64,000 nucleotides of DNA from Planctomycetota bacterium (GCA_035574235.1 DATLZA010000102.1:27219-91218); one strand, 5' to 3'; positions 31,338-40,067 are shown, counted from the stretch's first letter. Translations and numbers: made by a program. Notes: generated by a model not told the origin, from the letters alone.

Positions 31338-31955
31338 TCAGGCCCCTCCTCCGGGCGCGGCGGGGACTCCGAGGCGGGCCGCCACCCGGCGGATGGCCTC
31401 GGGATACGCTTCGCATTCGGCCTGGAACACCCGTTCGGCGAGGCTCTCCGGCGTGTCCCCGGGAAGCACCGGCACCTTCTTCTGCAGGATGATCGGTCCG
31501 TGGTCGTAGTGCTCGTCGGCGAAATGCACGGTGCAACCGGACTCGCGGGCTCCGGAGCGCAGGACCGCCTCGTGCACCCGGCGGCCGTAGAACCCTTTGC
31601 CGCCGAACCGGGGCAGGAGCGCGGGATGAATGTTCAGAACCCTTCCGGCCCACTTCGGGGGAAAAAGATAAAGGTGCACGAAGCCCGCCAGGAGGACGAG
31701 GTCGATCGGGTAGCGCTCCAGCACCTCGGTCACCGCGCGGCTGAAGCTTTGCGCGTCCGGATAGCGGCGGCGGGGGACGACCTCGGCGGGCAGGCCGTGG
31801 CGCCGCGCCCGCTCCAGACCCGGCGCCGCCGGGTCGCTCGACACCACGACCTCGATCCGGGCGGGAAGCGATCCGTCTCCGATGCGGTCGATCAGGTTCT
31901 GGAGCGTCCGACCGCCGCCGGAGATGAGGACTCCCAACCGAACCGGGGGACTCAT
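31338..31955 (-). CDS. purN: phosphoribosylglycinamide formyltransferase
   Basis: LGVLISGGGRTLQNL, NIHPALLP, HFADEHYDHGPII motifs; start taken at MSPPVRLGVL. Confidence 0.85.
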   Translation of the reverse strand: MSPPVRLGVLISGGGRTLQNLIDRIGDGSLPARIEVVVSSDPAAPGLERARRHGLPAEVVPRRRYPDAQSFSRAVTEVLERYPIDLVLLAGFVHLYLFPPKWAGRVLNIHPALLPRFGGKGFYGRRVHEAVLRSGARESGCTVHFADEHYDHGPIILQKKVPVLPGDTPESLAERVFQAECEAYPEAIRRVAARLGVPAAPGGGA

Positions 31956-32046
31956 GGGTCGAGCGTCGTTCTCACCGAGGGTCCGTTGTTCAGTATATAC
32001 CATAAGAAGGCGGTCGGGGGAACGCTCCGGACGCGCGGCCCGGCCC

Positions 32047-34785
32047 TCAGCTTCCCGCGATCACCGCCACGCAGCGGCCGCACAGCGTGGGATGGCGCGC
32101 GTCCCGCCCCACGTCCGCCCGGAGGTTCCAGCAGCGTTCACACTTGGGGTGGGGCGAGCGCTCCGCGTGGATGAAGAGGCCCTTGAGTTCCTCCGCCTCG
32201 CGGCCCGCGGGGGCGTCGGCGACGATCGCCTCCGAGACGATCAGGACCTCCTGAAGATCCACCGCCCGCAACGTCCGCGCCAGCGCGAGGTCGGCCGCGT
32301 GGAGCGTCACGCGGGCCTCCAGCGATTTGCCGATCGCGCCGGCGCGGCGGAGCCGCTCCAGCTCCCGGTAGACTTCCGCGCGGACCGCCCACACGCGCTC
32401 CCATTCGGGATCGGGCTCCCAGGGCCCCGGCTCGGGCCACCGCGCCAGGTGGACGCTCTCTTCGACGCGGCCGGGCATATAGCCCCACACCTCCTCCATC
32501 GTATGGGACAGGATCGGGGCGAACATCCGCGTCAACGCGTCGAGGATCTGGTAGAGCGCCGTCTGGGCCGAGCGGCGCTCGCGCGAGGTCCGGCCGGAGG
32601 TGTACAGCCGGTCCTTGAGGATGTCGAAGTAGAGCGCGCTCAGGGTGACGGCGCAGAACTGAAAGAGCTCGTGGTAGGCGCGGAAGAACTCGTAGCGCTC
32701 GAAGTGCTGGGTGACGCGGCGGACGAGCGCGGAAAGCTCTCCGAGCGCCCAGCGGTCCACGGGCAGGAGGTCCGCGACGCGGTCGCGGCCGGGGTCGAAG
32801 TCGTAGAGGCTCGCCAGCAGATAGCGGAAGGTGTTGCGGATCTTCTTGTACGGTTCGGCGCGCTCCCGAAGGATTTCCCAGGACATGGGAAGGTCGTCGG
32901 TGAAATCGATCGAGGCGATCCAGAGCCGCAGAAGTTCCGCGCCGATCTTGGACACCACCTCCTCGACGGGGATGAGGAAGCCGGATTTCGAAAGCTTGTC
33001 GCCGGTCCGGGCGTCCACGAGAAATCCGTGGGTGACGACCTCCCGGAAGGGGGCCTGGCCGTTGGAGAGGAGGCTGGCCAGGAGCGAGACCTGGAACCAC
33101 CCGCGGTGCTGGTCGGTGCCCTCGAGGTAGAGCTCCGCCGGGAAGTGAAGTTCCGGGTGTTTCATCGAGACGGCGCGGTGGCTGGCCGCCGACTCGAACC
33201 ACACGTCGAAGATGTCCTCCTCCTTGACGAAATCCTCCGATCCGCAGGCGCAGCGGGTTCCCGGGGGAAGGATGTCGCGGGGGGCGGTGGTGAACCACGC
33301 GTCGGCGCCGCCGCGGGCCACGAGCTTCTTGGCGGCGTCGAAGGTGACGTCGTTGAAGAGAAGCGCGCGGCAGCGGGCGCAGTAGAAGGCGGGGATCGGC
33401 ACGCCCCAGGAGCGCTGCCGGGACACGCACCAGTCGGGCCGGTCCTGGAGCATGCCGGAGATGCGGGTTTCCCCCCAGGAGGGGACCCAGCGGGTGCGTC
33501 GCACCGCTTCGAGCGCCGCCCGGCGGCCGTCGTTGTGATCGATGAGGACGAACCACTGCTCGGTGGCGCGGAAGATGACGGGCTGCTTGCAGCGCCAGCA
33601 GCAGGGATAGTCGTGGGTGAATTCTTCGTGATGGAGGAGGACGCCGCTCCGGCGCAGGTCCTCCACGATCCGCGCGTTGGCCTGGAAGACGTGCTGTCCG
33701 GTGTACCCGGGCGCTTCGGCCGTGAAGATGCCCGACTCGTCCACGGGGGAGAGGATCGGGAGGTTGTATTTGAGGCCCGTCTCGTAGTCTTCCGCGCCGT
33801 GGCCGGGGGCCGTATGGACGAGGCCGGTTCCGTCGGAGACGGTGACGTAGTCGGCCAGGACGACGGGGCATTCGTGCCCGTAGAGAGGGTGCCGGTACTT
33901 TTGCCCTTCGAGGTCCCGGCCGCGCACGGACCCGACCGTTTCCCCGAGCGGGATTCGCTTGCGCAGCTCTTCGAGCCGCTGGGGGGCGGCCACGGCGAGG
34001 CGGTCGCGGAATCGGACGATCGCGTATTCGAGGTCGGGGTGGACCGCCACGGCGACGTCGGCCGGGAGGGTCCAGGGCGTGGTGGTCCAGACGAGGAGAT
34101 CCGTTCCCGGGCGGGAGGTCATCTCGAAGGCCAGGTAGATCGAGGGAGAAGGGAGGTTTTTGTATTCGAGTTCGGCCTCGGCCAGCGCGGTGCGGTCCTG
34201 GAGGCACCAGTGGATCGGCCGGCGCCTCCGGGCCACGTGGCCTTTCTTCCAGAGAAGCTCGAAAACCTCGAGGATCGAGAGCTCGTACTGAGGGTCGATC
34301 GTGAGGTAGGGACGTTCCCAGTCCCCCAGGACGCCGAGGGACTTGAATTCGCGCCGCTGGACGTCGATGTAGGTGCGGGCGAATTCGAGGCAAAGGCGGC
34401 GGATTTCGGACTTGGGAAGGGAGGCGGCCTTGGGGCCCAGGTCCTTGACGACGCGATGCTCGATGGGCAGGCCGTGGCAGTCCCATCCGGGGACGAAGGG
34501 GGAATGGTAGCCCTGCATGGTCCGGAACTTGACCACGATGTCCTTGAGGACCTTGTTCTGTCCCGTGCCCACGTGCACGTGCCCGTTGGCGTAAGGGGGG
34601 CCGTCGTGGAGGATCCATTTCGGGCGGCCGCGGCGGGCGGCCTGGATTTTCGCGTACAGGTTTTCGCGTTCCCATCGCTCCCGGATCCGAGGCTCCATCT
34701 GCGTGAGGTTGGCGGCCATGGGAAAATCGGTCCGCGGGAGGTTGAGCGTGTCCTTGTACGGAGTGGAGCCCATGAGGGGAGACAT
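32047..34785 (-). CDS. ileS: isoleucine--tRNA ligase
   Basis: PPYANGHVHVGTG (HIGH-type motif), KMSKS-like region, C-terminal Zn finger (CERCW...CGRC). The ORF's N-terminal 280-aa extension was rejected. Confidence 0.92.
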   Translation of the reverse strand: MSPLMGSTPYKDTLNLPRTDFPMAANLTQMEPRIRERWERENLYAKIQAARRGRPKWILHDGPPYANGHVHVGTGQNKVLKDIVVKFRTMQGYHSPFVPGWDCHGLPIEHRVVKDLGPKAASLPKSEIRRLCLEFARTYIDVQRREFKSLGVLGDWERPYLTIDPQYELSILEVFELLWKKGHVARRRRPIHWCLQDRTALAEAELEYKNLPSPSIYLAFEMTSRPGTDLLVWTTTPWTLPADVAVAVHPDLEYAIVRFRDRLAVAAPQRLEELRKRIPLGETVGSVRGRDLEGQKYRHPLYGHECPVVLADYVTVSDGTGLVHTAPGHGAEDYETGLKYNLPILSPVDESGIFTAEAPGYTGQHVFQANARIVEDLRRSGVLLHHEEFTHDYPCCWRCKQPVIFRATEQWFVLIDHNDGRRAALEAVRRTRWVPSWGETRISGMLQDRPDWCVSRQRSWGVPIPAFYCARCRALLFNDVTFDAAKKLVARGGADAWFTTAPRDILPPGTRCACGSEDFVKEEDIFDVWFESAASHRAVSMKHPELHFPAELYLEGTDQHRGWFQVSLLASLLSNGQAPFREVVTHGFLVDARTGDKLSKSGFLIPVEEVVSKIGAELLRLWIASIDFTDDLPMSWEILRERAEPYKKIRNTFRYLLASLYDFDPGRDRVADLLPVDRWALGELSALVRRVTQHFERYEFFRAYHELFQFCAVTLSALYFDILKDRLYTSGRTSRERRSAQTALYQILDALTRMFAPILSHTMEEVWGYMPGRVEESVHLARWPEPGPWEPDPEWERVWAVRAEVYRELERLRRAGAIGKSLEARVTLHAADLALARTLRAVDLQEVLIVSEAIVADAPAGREAEELKGLFIHAERSPHPKCERCWNLRADVGRDARHPTLCGRCVAVIAGS

Positions 34786-34869
34786 CTTAATGAATGGTCC
34801 GGGGGGCGTCAACGCCGCCTCCGGCCGCAATCCTTTGCCGGGCGCCGGCGGCCGCGGTAAAATCCGCCC

Positions 34870-35661
34870 ATGGGCGCGGTCCCTCCCAAGGTGTACGCCC
34901 TGGCCGATTCCGTGGTGTACGGCCCGATGGCGTCGCGCCGCCTGGGCCGGTCTCTGGGGGTCAACATCCTTCCCTTCGGCGTCAAGGTATGCTCGTTCAA
35001 CTGCAACTACTGTCAATGCGGGTGGACGACGGATCTGGTGGACGCGGCGTCGCTCGCCCGGTATCGGTTCCCGAGCGCCCGCGAGGTGGGAGAAGCCCTG
35101 CGCCGCCGGCTGCCGGAGCTGAGGGCGTCCGGCGTGCGGGTGGACTGCATGACGATCGCCGGCAACGGAGAGCCGACGCTTCATCCGGACTTTCTCGACG
35201 TCGTCCGCGCCCTTCTGGCCGCGCGGGACGAATGCTGGCCCGGGCTCCGCACGGACATCCTTTCCAACGCGGCGCACCTGGACCGGCCGGACGTGGTCGA
35301 GGGGCTCAATCTTCTGGATGAGCGGTACATGAAGCTCGACGCGGGGACGGAGGAGCAGTTCCTGAACATGAACGCCCCGGTGATCGAGGCGGGGATCTGG
35401 GACGTGGTCCGGCATCTTCCGAGGCTGCGGGATTTCGTGGTGCAGGCGATGTTCACGCACGGCCGGCGGGACAACACGGACACGCGTTCGGTGGTGGCGT
35501 GGATCCAGCTTCTGGGGCGCCTGAAGCCCAAGGCGGTTCATGTGTACAGCGTGGATCGCGTCCCGGCGGACCCGAAGATCCGCCCCGTGGAGCGCGAGCT
35601 TCTGGAGGAGATCGCGCGGGCGCTGACGGCACAAACGGGGATCCCCGCGGAAGTGTTCTGA
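34870..35661 (+). CDS. radical SAM protein
   Basis: CSFNCNYC (Cx3Cx2C) cluster motif plus glycine-rich SAM motif. Confidence 0.7.
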   Translation: MGAVPPKVYALADSVVYGPMASRRLGRSLGVNILPFGVKVCSFNCNYCQCGWTTDLVDAASLARYRFPSAREVGEALRRRLPELRASGVRVDCMTIAGNGEPTLHPDFLDVVRALLAARDECWPGLRTDILSNAAHLDRPDVVEGLNLLDERYMKLDAGTEEQFLNMNAPVIEAGIWDVVRHLPRLRDFVVQAMFTHGRRDNTDTRSVVAWIQLLGRLKPKAVHVYSVDRVPADPKIRPVERELLEEIARALTAQTGIPAEVF

Positions 35662-35723
35662 CGGCCGGAGTCGGAGCGGGTCGGGAAAAAGAGAAGTGGA
35701 GGGTTCCCGGAAGCGCGGTCCTC

Positions 35724-35752
35724 TTGAAAGACCGCCTCGTGGGCCCTATACT
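35724..35752 (+). promoter_or_regulatory. sigma70-like promoter TTGAAA-N17-TATACT driving the korAB leader
   Basis: ctcTTGAAAgaccgcctcgtgggcccTATACTtacc. Confidence 0.45.
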
Positions 35753-35826
35753 TACCACAGCCGCCGCCGGTTCGGGCGGCTCGGCGACGGGCGGGGAGGG
35801 GTAGGTCCTCACGCCCCGGGAGAACG

Positions 35827-35895
35827 ATGAGCATTCGGTCACGATCGGCGCCCCGTTCGAACGGGGCTTTTTTTGTAGCTGAGGAAGAACGATGA
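35827..35895 (+). CDS. candidate leader peptide uORF (22 codons) overlapping the korA start (ATGA) and spanning the terminator hairpin
   Basis: GGGAGA Shine-Dalgarno 5 nt upstream; encodes MSIRSRSAPRSNGAFFVAEEER. Confidence 0.3.
   Translation: MSIRSRSAPRSNGAFFVAEEER
35850..35874 (+). terminator. intrinsic terminator/attenuator hairpin (GCCCCGT-tcga-ACGGGGC) followed by T7, 18 nt upstream of korA
   Basis: ggcGCCCCGTTCGAACGGGGCtttttttgtag. Confidence 0.55.
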
Positions 35896-37769
35896 CGCCC
35901 CCCACTGCTGCGGACGTATCGGCCCCGCCCCGGCGGCAGGTCCTCGAAAAGGTCACCATTCGCTTCGCCGGCGACTCCGGCGACGGCATGCAGCTCATCG
36001 GCGGCCACTTCACCAACACGACGGCCGTTCTGGGCAACGACCTGGCGACCTTCCCGGACTTCCCGGCCGAGATTCGGGCCCCGGCGGGATCGCTCCCGGG
36101 CGTTTCCGGCTTCCAGATCCAGTTCGCCGCCAGCGACATTCATACCCCGGGAGACCGGCCGGACGTCCTGGTGGCGTTCAACCCCGCCGCCCTCAAGGTG
36201 AACCTCCCCGACATGGCCCCCAATTCGGTCATCATCGTCAATACCGACGCCTTCACGGAGGTCGAGCTCAAGAAGGCGGGCTACAAGACCAATCCTCTCG
36301 AGGACGGATCGCTCTCCAAATACCAGGTCTTCAAGGTTCCCATCACGGATCTCACGATCAAGGCGCTCAACTCCATCAAGTTCGCCGAGAAGGATCACCA
36401 GAAGAAGGAGCGCAACAAGAACTTCTTCGCGCTCGGGATGCTGTACTGGCTTTATAACCGCCCTCTCGAGACGACCTTCAAGGCCATCGAGCGCGAGCTG
36501 GCCAAGAAGGCGGAAGGGGCGCAGCTCGTCGCCGCCGCGCAGACGGCGCTGAAGGCCGGGCACGCCTACGCGGAGGCCACGGAGCTCTTCCGTTCCCAGT
36601 ACGTCGTCCCTCCGGCCCGCTACCAGCCCGGCACGTACCGCAACATCAACGGCAATACCGCTCTGGCGATCGGACTGGTGACGGCGTCGCGGCTGGCGGG
36701 GATTCCCCTCTTCTACGGGAGCTATCCGATCACGCCGGCCAGCTCGGTCCTCGAGGAGCTGTCGCGCCACAAGAATTTCGGGGTGCGGACGTTCCAGGCG
36801 GAGGACGAGATCGCGGCGGTGACCGCGGCGATCGGGGCCTCCTACGCCGGAGCCCTCGGCGTGACCGGCACCAGCGGCCCCGGGGTGGCCCTCAAGAGCG
36901 AGGCGATCAACCTGGCCGTGATGGTGGAGCTTCCGCTGATCATCTGCGACATTCAGCGCGGCGGGCCGTCCACGGGATTGCCGACGAAAACCGAGCAGGC
37001 GGATCTCCTGCAGGCTCTCTTCGGGCGGAACTCGGAATCGCCCGTGGCGGTCGTGGCCCCGGCGACGCCCGCGGAATGCTTCGACCTGGCGATCTTCGCC
37101 GCCCGCATCGCCATCAAGTACATGTGCCCCGTGTTCGTGCTCTCGGACGGCTACCTCGCCAACGGCGCCGAGCCCTGGAGGATCCCCGATCCCGAGCAGC
37201 TCCCCAGGATCGAGGTCCGCTTCCGGAAGGACCCCGACGGCTTCGCCCCGTACCTCCGGGACGAGGTGACGCTCGCCCGCGAGTGGGCCATTCCGGGCAC
37301 CCCCGGCCTGGAGCATCGGATCGGCGGCATCGAGAAGAGTCACATCTGGGGCAACGTCAATTACGATCCCGAAAACCACGATTTCATGTGCCGGGTGCGC
37401 GCGGCGAAAATCCAGCGCATCGTCCAGGATGTTCCCGACGTGAAGGTCCACGGACCCGAGGACGCGACCACGCTTGTCATCGGCTGGGGGTCCACGTACG
37501 GGGCCATCCGCGCGGCGGTGGAGGAGTGCCAGCAGCGGGGGCTCAAGGTGGCGCGCGCCCACCTGAGGCACCTGAATCCGTTCCCGGCCAATCTGGGCAA
37601 GGTGCTTTCCCGCTTCCGCAAGATTCTGGTGCCCGAGATGAACCTCGGCCAGCTTCTGTTCCTCCTGCGCGCGAAGTTCCTGGTGGACGCCAAGGGCATC
37701 AACAAGGTGCAGGGAAAGCCCTTCCGCGTCGCCGAGCTGATCGAGGTGATCGAAAAGGAATGCCGATAG
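35892..37769 (+). CDS. korA: 2-oxoglutarate:ferredoxin oxidoreductase subunit alpha (fused gamma/alpha, KorA)
   Basis: 625 aa; pyruvate/2-oxoacid:ferredoxin oxidoreductase domains III and I (GDSGDGMQ..., GSYPITPASS, TGTSGPGVALK). Confidence 0.85.
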   Translation: MTPPTAADVSAPPRRQVLEKVTIRFAGDSGDGMQLIGGHFTNTTAVLGNDLATFPDFPAEIRAPAGSLPGVSGFQIQFAASDIHTPGDRPDVLVAFNPAALKVNLPDMAPNSVIIVNTDAFTEVELKKAGYKTNPLEDGSLSKYQVFKVPITDLTIKALNSIKFAEKDHQKKERNKNFFALGMLYWLYNRPLETTFKAIERELAKKAEGAQLVAAAQTALKAGHAYAEATELFRSQYVVPPARYQPGTYRNINGNTALAIGLVTASRLAGIPLFYGSYPITPASSVLEELSRHKNFGVRTFQAEDEIAAVTAAIGASYAGALGVTGTSGPGVALKSEAINLAVMVELPLIICDIQRGGPSTGLPTKTEQADLLQALFGRNSESPVAVVAPATPAECFDLAIFAARIAIKYMCPVFVLSDGYLANGAEPWRIPDPEQLPRIEVRFRKDPDGFAPYLRDEVTLAREWAIPGTPGLEHRIGGIEKSHIWGNVNYDPENHDFMCRVRAAKIQRIVQDVPDVKVHGPEDATTLVIGWGSTYGAIRAAVEECQQRGLKVARAHLRHLNPFPANLGKVLSRFRKILVPEMNLGQLLFLLRAKFLVDAKGINKVQGKPFRVAELIEVIEKECR

Positions 37770-37796
37770 ATTCCCGACCCGGGAGGTGAATGAACC

Positions 37797-38834
37797 ATGG
37801 TCGCCCCCACGCAGCCCCAGACCGCGCCCCAGGCGCCCAAGTACACCAAGAAGGACTTCCAGACCGATCAGGAGGTGCGCTGGTGTCCCGGGTGCGGGGA
37901 CTACGCCATTCTCAACGCCGCCCAGCAGGTCTTCGCCCAGCTGGGACTGCCCCGCCACAACCTGGTGATGGTTTCGGGGATCGGCTGCTCCAGCCGCTTC
38001 CCGTACTACGTGAACACCTACGGATTCCATACCATCCACGGGCGCGCCCCCGCCGTGGCCACGGGCATCAAGCTGGCCAACCCCAACCTCCAGGTCTGGG
38101 TGATCACCGGCGACGGGGACGGCCTTTCGATCGGCGGCAACCACCTCATCCACGCCCTGCGCCGCAACGTCGACCTCAAGATCCTGCTCTTCAACAACCG
38201 CATCTACGGGTTGACCAAGGGGCAGTACTCCCCCACGAGCGAGCTGGGCAAGCTCAATAAGTCCGCCCCCTACGGGACCGTGGATCAGCCGATCAATCCG
38301 ATCTCGCTCGCCCTGGCCGCCGAGGCCACCTTCGTCGCGCGCTCGGTGGACGTGTACGCCAAGCACCTGATGGAAATGATCCGGCGGATGGCCGAGCACA
38401 GGGGATCGGCCTTCCTGGAGATCTACCAGAATTGCAATGTCTTCAACGACCGCGCCTTCGAGAAGTTCACCGAGAGGGACGTCCGGGACGACTGGAACGT
38501 GGTCCTGGAGCACGGCAAACCCCTTATTTTCGGAAAGAACCGCGACCGGGGGATCCGCCTCAACGGTTTGAAGCTGGAGGTCGTCAAGCTCGGCGAGAAC
38601 GGAGTCACCGAAAAGGACCTCATCGTCCACGACGAGCACAATCCGCCGCTGGCGTACCTTTTGTCCCGCATGAACTTCCCGCAGTTCCCGGAGCCCGTCG
38701 GCGTCTTCCGCAGCGACCGCCTGCCGACGCTCGAGGAGCGCGTCGAGAACCAGATCGCGGAGGTGAAGAAGAAGCAGGGCGAAGGGGACCTGCGGAAGCT
38801 GCTTTTCTCCGGCGACCTGTGGGAAGTGAAGTAG
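37797..38834 (+). CDS. korB: 2-oxoglutarate:ferredoxin oxidoreductase subunit beta (TPP-binding, KorB)
   Basis: WCPGCGDY, GIGCSSRFP and the TPP-binding GDGDG...N motif. Confidence 0.85.
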   Translation: MVAPTQPQTAPQAPKYTKKDFQTDQEVRWCPGCGDYAILNAAQQVFAQLGLPRHNLVMVSGIGCSSRFPYYVNTYGFHTIHGRAPAVATGIKLANPNLQVWVITGDGDGLSIGGNHLIHALRRNVDLKILLFNNRIYGLTKGQYSPTSELGKLNKSAPYGTVDQPINPISLALAAEATFVARSVDVYAKHLMEMIRRMAEHRGSAFLEIYQNCNVFNDRAFEKFTERDVRDDWNVVLEHGKPLIFGKNRDRGIRLNGLKLEVVKLGENGVTEKDLIVHDEHNPPLAYLLSRMNFPQFPEPVGVFRSDRLPTLEERVENQIAEVKKKQGEGDLRKLLFSGDLWEVK

Positions 38835-38847
38835 CCGGCGGCCCGGA

Positions 38848-38875
38848 TTGACAGCGCGCGCCGGGCCCCTATAAT
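38848..38875 (+). promoter_or_regulatory. perfect consensus sigma70 promoter TTGACA-N16-TATAAT; folE ATG 8 nt downstream of the -10 (leaderless)
   Basis: gaTTGACAgcgcgcgccgggccccTATAATcagggcgcATG. Confidence 0.55.
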
Positions 38876-38883
38876 CAGGGCGC

Positions 38884-39474
38884 ATGTCCGACAAGGCCGC
38901 CTTGGTCCGCCCCGAGCTCCGGGAACACGTGGCGGAGATCCTCCGCCTGCTCGGAGAGGATCCTTCCCGCGAGGGACTGGTTCGGACTCCGCTCCGGGTG
39001 GAAAAAGCGCTGCGCTACCTCACCCGCGGGTACGGCCAGGATCCCACCGAGACGCTCCGCGGAGCGGTCTTCGAGGCCAGCGACTACGACGAGATGGTGA
39101 TCGTCAAGGACATCGACGTCTTCTCGCTGTGCGAACACCATCTGCTGCCTTTCTTCGGGAAGTGCCACGTGGCGTACCTGCCGGAGCGCAAGATCGTGGG
39201 ACTTTCGAAGATCCCCCGCGTCGTGGAGGTCTACGCCCGTCGGCTTCAGATTCAGGAGCGCCTCACCACGGAGATCGCCCGCGTCATCGAGGACGCCCTG
39301 CAGCCCAAGGGGGTCGGCGTCGTCATCGAAGCGTTCCACCTGTGCGTGATGATGCGCGGCGTGGAAAAGCAGAACGCCCACATGATCACCAGCTCCATGC
39401 GCGGCCGCTTCCGCACGGACCCCAAGACCCGCGAGGAATTTCTGGATCTGATCCGTCGGTCCAAACCGCTATAA
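38884..39474 (+). CDS. folE: GTP cyclohydrolase I
   Basis: [30 protein letters not shown] motifs. Confidence 0.9.
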
Positions 39475-39485
39475 AGGAGGGTTTC

Positions 39486-40067
39486 ATGGCGACGCTCGTC
39501 GGCAAGAAGGCCCCGGCCTTCAAGACCCAGGCGTTCGTGCGCGGCGAGATCAAGGAGATCTCGCTCGACGATGCCAAGGGAAAGTGGACGGTCCTGTTCT
39601 TCTACCCGCTGGACTTCACCTTCGTCTGACCCACGGAAATCATGGCGTTCTCCGACAGGTTGTCGGAATTCCAGCAGCGCGGCGCCGAAGTGATCGCCGT
39701 GTCCACCGATTCCGTGTACTCCCACAAGGCGTGGGCCGAGGTGCCCCGCACCAAGGGCGGCATCCAGGGCGTTCAGATCCCCATCGCCGCGGATCTCACC
39801 AAGATGATTTCGCGGGACTACGGAGTTCTCGACGAGGCCAAGGGCATCGCCCTCCGGGGGACGTTCATCATCAACCCCGAGGGGACCGTGGTTTCCGAGA
39901 CCGTCAACTTCTTCCCCGTGGGACGCAACGTGGACGAGTGCCTGCGCACCATCGACGCGTTCCAGGAGGCCGCCAAGGGCGTCGTCTGCCCGGTGGGCTG
40001 GACCAAAGGGAAGGAGGCCATCAACCCGAAGGAAGCCTCCAAGTACTTCGAAAAGCTCAAGACGTAG
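39486..40067 (+). CDS. typical 2-Cys peroxiredoxin (AhpC/Prx1) with in-frame TGA at the peroxidatic position: candidate selenocysteine peroxiredoxin
   Basis: Single frame 39486..40067. ...[15 protein letters not shown]-[TGA 39627-39629][14 protein letters not shown] matches [19 protein letters not shown]. The resolving Cys is retained (VCPVGW). The ORF track splits this into 39129..39629 and 39642..40067. Confidence 0.65.
39651..39667 (+). promoter_or_regulatory. candidate bacterial SECIS hairpin (7-bp stem TCCGACA/TGTCGGA, GGU apical loop) 22 nt downstream of the in-frame UGA
   Basis: tgaCCCACGGAAATCATGGCGTTCtccgacaGGTtgtcgga. Confidence 0.35.

Follow-up and report, generated by a model that had tools for sequence, protein, structure and literature searches.

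The korAB-like operon of the window, by which we mean the whole 64,000-nucleotide stretch of Planctomycetota DNA analysed here, is preceded by an RNA leader that, judging from its sequence and that of its relatives, most likely switches the operon on and off by premature termination of transcription. The leader comprises a predicted hairpin, a tiny upstream open reading frame (uORF) and a strong putative intrinsic terminator, and it appears to be a conserved, previously undescribed element of a group of uncultured soil Planctomycetota. We observed that its anatomy is conserved in 29 distinct korA leaders, that it is linked exclusively to korA, and that the spacing between the uORF start codon and the terminator is fixed. 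In our judgement it is highly probable that the leader acts as a regulated, or at least a tuned, transcription attenuator. Our preferred explanation of how it would do so, a promoter-proximal attenuator of the korAB-like operon gated by a ribosome on the short ORF, is put forward tentatively, as possible rather than probable.

The elements of the leader in the window are collected in Table 1. From the position of the TATACT element, transcription is predicted to start at about nucleotide 35759, some 7 nt to its 3' side. A preliminary description of this region had reported the promoter, the GGGAGA element, the 22-codon ORF, the perfect hairpin with its T7 run and the ATGA overlap with korA, and we located each of them at the same positions. 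It had also placed the terminator 18 nt before the korA ATG; the location held, and we count 17 nt from the end of the T7 run to the ATG. In the window, the stem of the terminator is 7 bp long, 6 of the pairs being GC; it is capped by a 4-nt loop and followed by the T7 run. The G+C content of the window is 68.7%, only four runs of 6 or more T residues occur on both strands of the 64 kb, and a perfect GC hairpin precedes just one of these, the run in the korA leader; the korA leader terminator is therefore beyond chance. The folding energy of the whole leader in the window was no better than that of shuffled sequences (z = -0.13) and is thus uninformative, so that the case rests on comparison with relatives, and the weight is carried by the comparative data and by z-scores for hairpin P1 in the individual sequences.

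Table 1. Features of the korA leader region, with positions counted from the first nucleotide of the window
Feature	Position	Strand	Description
Promoter, sigma-70-type	35724..35752	+	TTGAAA (35724-35729), 17-nt spacer, TATACT (35747-35752); 10/12 in consensus scan
Hairpin P0	35760..35785	+	GCCGCC-GGTTCG-GGCGGC with outer GCC/GGC; from MFE folds
Covariance model R1 match	35783..35876	+	44.8 bits, E = 1.7e-8; R1 built without the window
Hairpin P1	35789..35816	+	5' strand is the G-run GGGCGGGGAGGG (family consensus CGGGUGGGG); variable tip; C-rich 3' strand
Shine-Dalgarno-like GGGAGA	35818..35823	+	3 nt 5' of the uORF ATG; lineage-specific
uORF, 22 codons, MSIRSRSAPRSNGAFFVAEEER	35827..35895	+	ATG 35827-35829; TGA 35893-35895 overlaps korA ATG 35892-35894
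uORF codon 6, CGA	35842..35844	+	Aligns under the (G/C)TGA of relatives (two alignments)
Predicted intrinsic terminator	35850..35874	+	GCCCCGT-TCGA-ACGGGGC (35850-35867), T7 (35868-35874)
korA ribosome-binding site GAGGAAG	35881..35887	+	GGAG in relatives
korAB-like operon	35892..38834	+	korA-like alpha subunit 35892-37769, 625 aa; korB-like beta subunit 37797-38834, 345 aa

KorA relatives were taken from a protein database, graded from 75 to 100% identity and labelled Planctomycetota where named. Contigs picked by KorA protein identity alone (75-96%) provided an unbiased sample with ten distinct members (those named here are L081-L085, L087, L088, L128 and L132; L086 is identical to L085), and the full leader was present upstream of korA in all ten. 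A pattern scan of metagenomes, which used the 3' arm of the terminator followed by T7, a gap and ATGACNCCNCC, contributed a further 19 distinct KorA leaders once about 17 chance matches had been discarded. The total is 29 distinct korA leaders, that of the window and 28 others from related Planctomycetota with KorA 75-96% identical, and in every case the leader lies directly upstream of korA on the same strand. In a genome collection holding one genome per species, no terminator was found beside korA among the matches listed for at least 80 loci (KorA 57-72% identical), a set that lacked close relatives and is not informative on the leader-bearing clade. Loci from sister clades, L129 (76% KorA identity), L131 (74%), L130 (72%) and L001 (72%), have a similar promoter and a short 5' UTR, and P1, the mini-ORF and the terminator are all absent from them. 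Because these sister clades keep the promoter without the leader, we conclude that the leader was inserted into the 5' UTR of korA in a single clade, that in which KorA starts with MTPP(T/S).

We built a covariance model of the leader, R1, from 18 relatives with the window excluded, using Infernal-based realignment. R1 recovered all 29 leaders with E values from 1e-18 to 1e-4, gave a single significant match when the 64-kb window was searched with filters off, and had no match in the sister-clade loci. No second copy of the leader was detected by regular-expression search, or by R1 search of about 380 kb of related contigs. A search for tRNA and tmRNA genes found none. Searches of Rfam 15 with the window leader (E<=10) and five relatives (E<=1) produced nothing near the gathering scores; the matches were sub-threshold terminator look-alikes only, and we set aside assignment of the korA leader to a known RNA family. 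The possibility of a riboswitch recognizable in Rfam, raised in the preliminary description, was thus not borne out for the window or the five relatives. Likewise, our literature search found no description of korA or Planctomycetes leaders.

As can be seen from the alignment of the 29 leaders, all of them carry (C)TTGAA-N18-TATAnT at the same place, as do the leaderless L129 and L131, so that the promoter of the preliminary description is retained throughout the family and in sister clades that have no leader. Hairpin P0 is confined to the window and its closest relative, L081, and is absent from the other 27 leaders; in L081 it reads GCCTCC...GGAGGC, a compensatory G-C to U-A change relative to the window. 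A hairpin at the place of P1, beginning about 10-15 nt 3' of the -10 box, was seen in all leaders. Its 5' strand is the near-constant CGGGUGGGG, its tip varies in both sequence and length (8 to about 40 nt), and its C-rich 3' strand occurs in several registers (CGCCCG, CCCCGAUCCCG, CCCUCC, CCCACC). Compared with dinucleotide shuffles, P1 gave a mean z of -1.5 and negative values in 27/28 sequences. RNAalifold and the covariance model place two 3-bp helices in P1; in the covariance-model alignment 95% of cells are paired and 5 pairs have changes on both sides, a result that none of 500 shuffles equalled, although the support for structure to be drawn from these statistics is modest, since the alignment was fitted to the model and leans towards structure. 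A C/A-rich linker of 6-20 nt separates P1 from the uORF ATG, and we found no conserved pairing between P1 and the terminator.

The terminator hairpin, too, proved to be general: hairpin and T-run were observed in 29/29 leaders with 98.8% of cells paired, the usual form being (A)GGCCCCGG-loop-CCGGGGCC(U), mostly GCCCCGG...CCGGGGC, followed by 7-9 T residues. The distance from the T-run to the korA ATG ranges from 10 to 31 nt across the 29 leaders, and CGGAG is kept 7-9 nt 5' of that ATG, and every korA has a GGAG. Overall, the 5' strand of P1 and the terminator stem are unusually constant while loops and linkers drift.

The start codon of the uORF is kept in 29/29 leaders at a position 20-25 nt to the 5' side of the first paired base of the terminator, and is followed by A in 27 of them; linker, loop and spacer sequences vary freely around this fixed distance from ATG to stem. 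A second conserved element, (G/C)UGA, is found 15 nt downstream of the A of this start codon, with its GA retained in 28/29. In 22 of the 29 leaders the stop codon of the ORF precedes the first paired base of the terminator by 4-10 nt. Exactly five codons and a TGA are found in 19 (MIVRN, MIVAA, MSVAE, MILRQ and others, with MTACE also seen among the peptides), and three of the ORFs that end before the stem are lengthened, in each case in frame, by 3 nt in L082 and by 6 nt in L093 and L123. The stop falls within the terminator loop in L128 and L132; in L087 and L117 the ORF crosses the hairpin and stops before korA; and in the window, L081 and L084 it ends on the ATGA overlap with korA. No leader (0/29) has its uORF stop far upstream of the stem.

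The uORF of the preliminary description therefore stands with respect to its start codon, which is invariant and fixed in spacing, and not with respect to its 22-codon length, which is not general in the family. The same holds for the placement of the terminator inside the ORF, which as a general feature is contradicted by the 22 ORFs that stop before the stem; for the coupling to korA through ATGA, limited to three leaders; and for the GGGAGA Shine-Dalgarno sequence, present only in the window and L081, the corresponding region of the other 27 leaders being C/A-rich with no purine run. Conservation in relatives, on which the earlier proposal had been made to depend, was accordingly found for the hairpin and the uORF ATG (29/29) and not for the long uORF of the window type. 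From the alignments, the window is a derived variant that lost an ancestral TGA at codon 6 by change to CGA and gained a Shine-Dalgarno sequence. The preliminary description thus dealt with a real but derived member of the family, and its attenuator reading is partly supported, translation of a short ORF being plausible and the 22-codon frame, the Shine-Dalgarno sequence and the ATGA coupling being peculiar to the lineage of the window.

The region around the uORF start is AU/CA-rich and predicted to be open, with a GC fraction of about 0.5 versus about 0.69 for P1 and an unpaired probability of 0.56 versus 0.36. Indels have left the UGA at its usual position yet out of frame in L084, L087, L117 and L132. 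Substitutions within codons 2-5 show no clear three-base periodicity, and conservation of the peptide could not be detected beyond a hydrophobic third residue. By hand count, in sequences that are not phylogenetically independent, there is a mild excess of Ile, Val and Leu at residues 2 and 3. We considered several other roles for these elements and rejected them. The Ile/Val/Leu excess is too mild to argue for branched-chain amino-acid sensing, being restricted to two positions and inseparable from constraints on the nucleotides, and a leaderless transcript beginning at the mini-ORF ATG is disfavored by the lack of a consistent -10 box upstream. The organism seems to use selenocysteine, as described below; a SECIS-like reading of the UGA and hairpin was set aside nonetheless, because neither a GU nor a bulge is conserved in the terminator loops. 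Nor did examination by eye and with RNAalifold find conserved flanking helices that would make a hairpin, a K-turn (box C/D-like AUGA...CUGA) or an ANTAR-type double hexaloop around AUGA and UGA.

The proteins encoded by the operon match Pfam POR, POR_N and PFOR_II (alpha subunit) and TPP_enzyme_C (beta subunit). They pass NCBIfam TIGR03710, a substrate-neutral subfamily model, and TIGR02177, and pass none of the substrate-specific NCBIfam equivalog models. The earlier naming of the enzyme as a 2-oxoglutarate:ferredoxin oxidoreductase can be retained as far as alpha and beta subunits of a 2-oxoacid:ferredoxin oxidoreductase are concerned; specificity for 2-oxoglutarate, which the name korA implies, is an assumption that the substrate-neutral TIGR03710 match does not bear out.

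The gene upstream of the leader in the window encodes a radical-SAM protein. In relatives, one to three extra genes (for a HEAT_2 repeat protein and small hypotheticals) lie between the radical-SAM gene and the korA promoter, as we saw on comparing window positions 35662-35723 with L082 1267-2293, L083 844-2334 and L132 1505-2338; the window and L084 have none of these genes, and in both the promoter comes straight after the radical-SAM gene. The window has lost the HEAT-repeat and hypothetical genes that relatives have at this location. Whichever gene lies upstream (radical-SAM, HEAT_2 or hypothetical), the leader keeps its place beside korA. Upstream of the radical-SAM gene, relatives have a gene for isoleucyl-tRNA synthetase in divergent orientation, and in the leaderless sister clade represented by L130 (1-2337, - strand) korA divergently adjoins the genes for the large and small subunits of acetolactate synthase, so that branched-chain amino-acid genes neighbor the oxidoreductase in some lineages. 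Within window positions 31882-35634 both strands contain very long overlapping ORFs (992, 1195 and 845 aa), which are typical high-GC artefacts; Pfam gave no match for the 992-aa ORF on the + strand, and it is probably not a gene.

On the downstream side, strong predicted intrinsic terminators with 9-bp GC stems and T7-T9 follow korB in L087 (4963-4993) and L088 (5507-5535), before the folE promoter. These hairpins with T-runs close the korAB operon, which suggests that the lineage uses such terminators. In the window only 13 nt separate the korB stop (38834) from the folE promoter (38848), and there is no hairpin between them. Promoter-like sites directly adjoin start codons at two places on the + strand of the window, 38848-38886 and 34835-34872: for folE, a perfect TTGACA-16-TATAAT ends 8 nt 5' of the ATG (38884), and for the radical-SAM gene, TTGCCG-17-TAAAAT ends 6 nt 5' of the ATG (34870). 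From these promoter positions the folE and radical-SAM transcripts would have little or no 5' leader, which suggests that translation commonly starts without a Shine-Dalgarno sequence in the window organism. Farther downstream (39486-40064, + strand) is a gene for a 2-Cys peroxiredoxin (AhpC-TSA) with an in-frame TGA where the peroxidatic cysteine is expected, and a candidate SECIS hairpin, CCGACAGGTTGTCGG, about 30 nt 3' of that TGA; the product is a probable selenocysteine peroxiredoxin. In L081, L083, L087 and L130 the orthologue has been annotated by gene callers as separate fragments of about 47 aa and 100-141 aa; in L085 and L088 the gene is unbroken (193-194 aa), presumably with Cys.

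With regards to function, the space that follows the terminator is too short for a promoter, and sister clades use the same promoter to drive korA directly; korAB must therefore be transcribed through the hairpin. Since transcription of the operon must pass a hairpin that seems highly efficient, a regulated or tuned attenuator is the safest conclusion. We infer from these arrangements that the promoter would fire, and that the transcript would fold its 5' hairpin or hairpins and then meet the terminator. By default, most transcription would end there, releasing a short RNA of about 115 nt, and read-through into korAB would need a ribosome that has started on the short ORF at the invariant ATG. 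In the common form of the leader, a ribosome on the TGA after five codons would reach the first bases of the 5' arm of the terminator, such that the hairpin could not be completed; in the form found in the window, a ribosome on the uORF would melt the whole terminator and might reinitiate at korA by way of the ATGA. Candidate signals for such a system are translation capacity, ribosome-polymerase coupling and the supply of Ile- or Val-tRNA.

The geometry of the family agrees with this proposal. With UGA in its A site, a ribosome has a footprint that extends about 12-13 nt past the first base of the stop codon. Measured from the uORF stop, that footprint takes in the first 3-5 nt of the 5' arm, whose pairs are those nearest to the U-tract. 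Because the ORF in all 29 leaders ends 4-10 nt before the stem or enters or crosses it, the base of the hairpin would in every case lie under a ribosome that is translating the ORF or terminating on it, and this geometry fits the translation-dependent antitermination of the preliminary description. The AU/CA-rich open start region, the in-frame length changes and the invariant, fixed-distance ATG also count for a ribosome, as does the apparent translation of folE and the radical-SAM gene without a Shine-Dalgarno sequence. Several observations count against it. A Shine-Dalgarno sequence is missing before the uORF in 27/29 leaders, although korA itself always has one; codon periodicity is absent and the peptide is largely unconserved; and the near-invariant 5' strand of P1 goes unexplained. 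The kinetics would be tight, with only about 45-50 nt between the ATG and the release point: in the time that the polymerase takes to move about 20 nt, the ribosome would have both to load and to finish five codons. A pause of the polymerase would relax this demand, and we identified no pause signal in the leader. We also found no convincing conserved antiterminator pairing, only G-run/C-run options of 4-5 bp; direct occlusion of the pyrE type would not need an antiterminator.

The out-of-frame UGA in L084, L087, L117 and L132 points to a constraint at the RNA level and not to the role of a stop codon, and it is among the observations that a ribosome-independent RNA switch would accommodate. 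In such a switch the AUGA, the (G/C)UGA and the G-strand of P1 would be recognition elements for a ligand (a riboswitch), an RNA-binding protein or processive antiterminator, or a trans-acting RNA; their resemblance to codons would be incidental, and binding would decide whether the terminator forms. The retention of GA in 28/29 leaders, the absence of codon periodicity and the scarcity of Shine-Dalgarno sequences all agree with this. So does the constancy of the P1 5' strand and the terminator stem, as expected of strands that have more than one partner, and in truncated folds the CGGG of P1 often pairs with the CCCG of the terminator 5' arm. However, these alternative pairings amount to 4-5 bp versus 7-9 GC pairs in the terminator, and no pairing is conserved in the segment from P1 to the terminator. 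The leader has a single hairpin with a hypervariable tip enclosing 8-40 nt, and invariant bases occur only in the G-run, ATGA, (T)GA and the terminator; a multi-helix junction and an invariant pocket, as seen in aptamers, are both lacking. Even at permissive thresholds Rfam yielded no match, and no candidate gene for a binding protein is found consistently beside the leader. On balance we regard a ribosome-independent switch as unlikely. We are similarly doubtful that the leader represents a new regulatory class, whether a minimalist, antiterminator-free attenuator with five codons or a new riboswitch or protein-binding switch that contacts AUGA, UGA and CGGGUGGGG.

Two further explanations seem less likely than the ribosome-independent switch, and each would come as a surprise to us. 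The leader could be an independent small RNA gene whose product of about 90-115 nt acts in trans, with korAB expressed by leakage through the terminator or from upstream transcription. A conserved promoter of its own and a strong terminator with a U-tail make up the usual anatomy of such genes, and the sub-threshold resemblances reported by Rfam were all to small RNAs that bear terminators (anti-hemB, SorY, ncS54); a short terminated transcript is predicted here too, as it is under any of the models. Yet 29/29 copies lie 10-31 nt from the korA start in the same orientation and none lies elsewhere in the window or the 380 kb of related contigs, there is no space for a separate korA promoter, and the sister clades drive korA with a short 5' UTR from the same promoter, which identifies it as the korA promoter and the leader as an insertion in the 5' UTR. 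Alternatively, the structure could be a constitutive, unregulated attenuator or insulator that ends transcription arriving from upstream and reduces the output of the korA promoter in a constant proportion, its ATG and TGA having no role. The upstream genes on the same strand do lack a terminator of their own ahead of the promoter, and where intrinsic terminators are rare, as in this GC-rich genome, a single one may do double duty. However, the expected place for an insulator is 5' of the promoter and not between promoter and gene, and this reading leaves unexplained the invariant spaced ATG, the conserved stop, the open AU-rich patch and P1, as well as the sister clades that manage without a leader.

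The ribosome-gated attenuator, as we propose it, is of a known kind. In the pyrE attenuator of Escherichia coli, the distance between the stop of the upstream ORF and the hairpin sets the level of read-through (PMC2784333). As in E. coli rph-pyrE and pyrBI, which are cases of coupling-sensing attenuation, the terminator in the korA leader lies just 5' of the regulated gene and the upstream frame stops a few nt before the hairpin or past it. Read-through at rph-pyrE depends on the timely arrival of a ribosome at the stop, and moving the stop changes expression (PMC2784333, citing earlier work); for the korA leader the same dependence is a proposal. There are clear differences as well. The upstream frame of pyrE is a full gene, rph, and the pyrBI leader has 44 codons, whereas the korA leader usually has five; pyrE and pyrBI sense UTP through polymerase pausing in U-rich tracts, and the korA leader is not U-rich before its terminator; and the genes controlled in the present case encode a 2-oxoacid:ferredoxin oxidoreductase.

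Among uORF attenuators known from comparative genomics, ilvB-II of Corynebacterium and fthC of Streptococcus can be likened to the korA leader. The former has a clear antiterminator and a peptide rich in the amino acids made by its operon, and neither is evident in the korA leader; the latter has a Shine-Dalgarno-like stretch, which the korA leader usually does not. In comparison with both, the peptide of the korA mini-ORF extends just 4 residues beyond Met, and its codons are not obviously related to the enzyme. The order of promoter, leader ORF, terminator and structural genes is that of the trp, his, leu, thr and ilv attenuators, and control would likewise be by ribosome position; the regulatory codon runs and the 1:2, 2:3 and 3:4 hairpins of those classical systems were not seen in the korA leader, and no leader family in Rfam matched it. 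Tiny uORFs of 3-20 codons close to terminators or sequestering hairpins are also found in the leaders of erm, cat, msrD and other ARE-ABCF genes, where ribosome occupancy decides the fold (PMC9226507 and 10.1101/2021.11.29.470318). Those leaders, however, involve drug-stalled ribosomes, alternative hairpins and resistance genes, and nothing ties korAB to antibiotics.

The leader would thus belong to a known kind, the promoter-proximal uORF/terminator attenuator, and what appears to be new is its occurrence in an unstudied phylum and its attachment to an operon not known to be so controlled. To our knowledge, regulatory RNA in the Planctomycetota is almost unexplored. The 2-oxoacid:ferredoxin oxidoreductases occupy a branch point in central carbon and redox metabolism, and the literature that we searched yielded no description of leader control for them. 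The natural variants described above, in which the uORF stops before the hairpin, inside it, past it or in overlap with the korA start, offer a direct test of control by ribosome position, and R1 can be used to annotate the leader in metagenomes and to seek short terminated transcripts in soil metatranscriptomes. If the five-codon attenuator is real, synthesis of KorAB would be tied to translation capacity or to the charging of Ile- or Val-tRNA, and a ribosome positioned at the UGA would by itself gate the operon.
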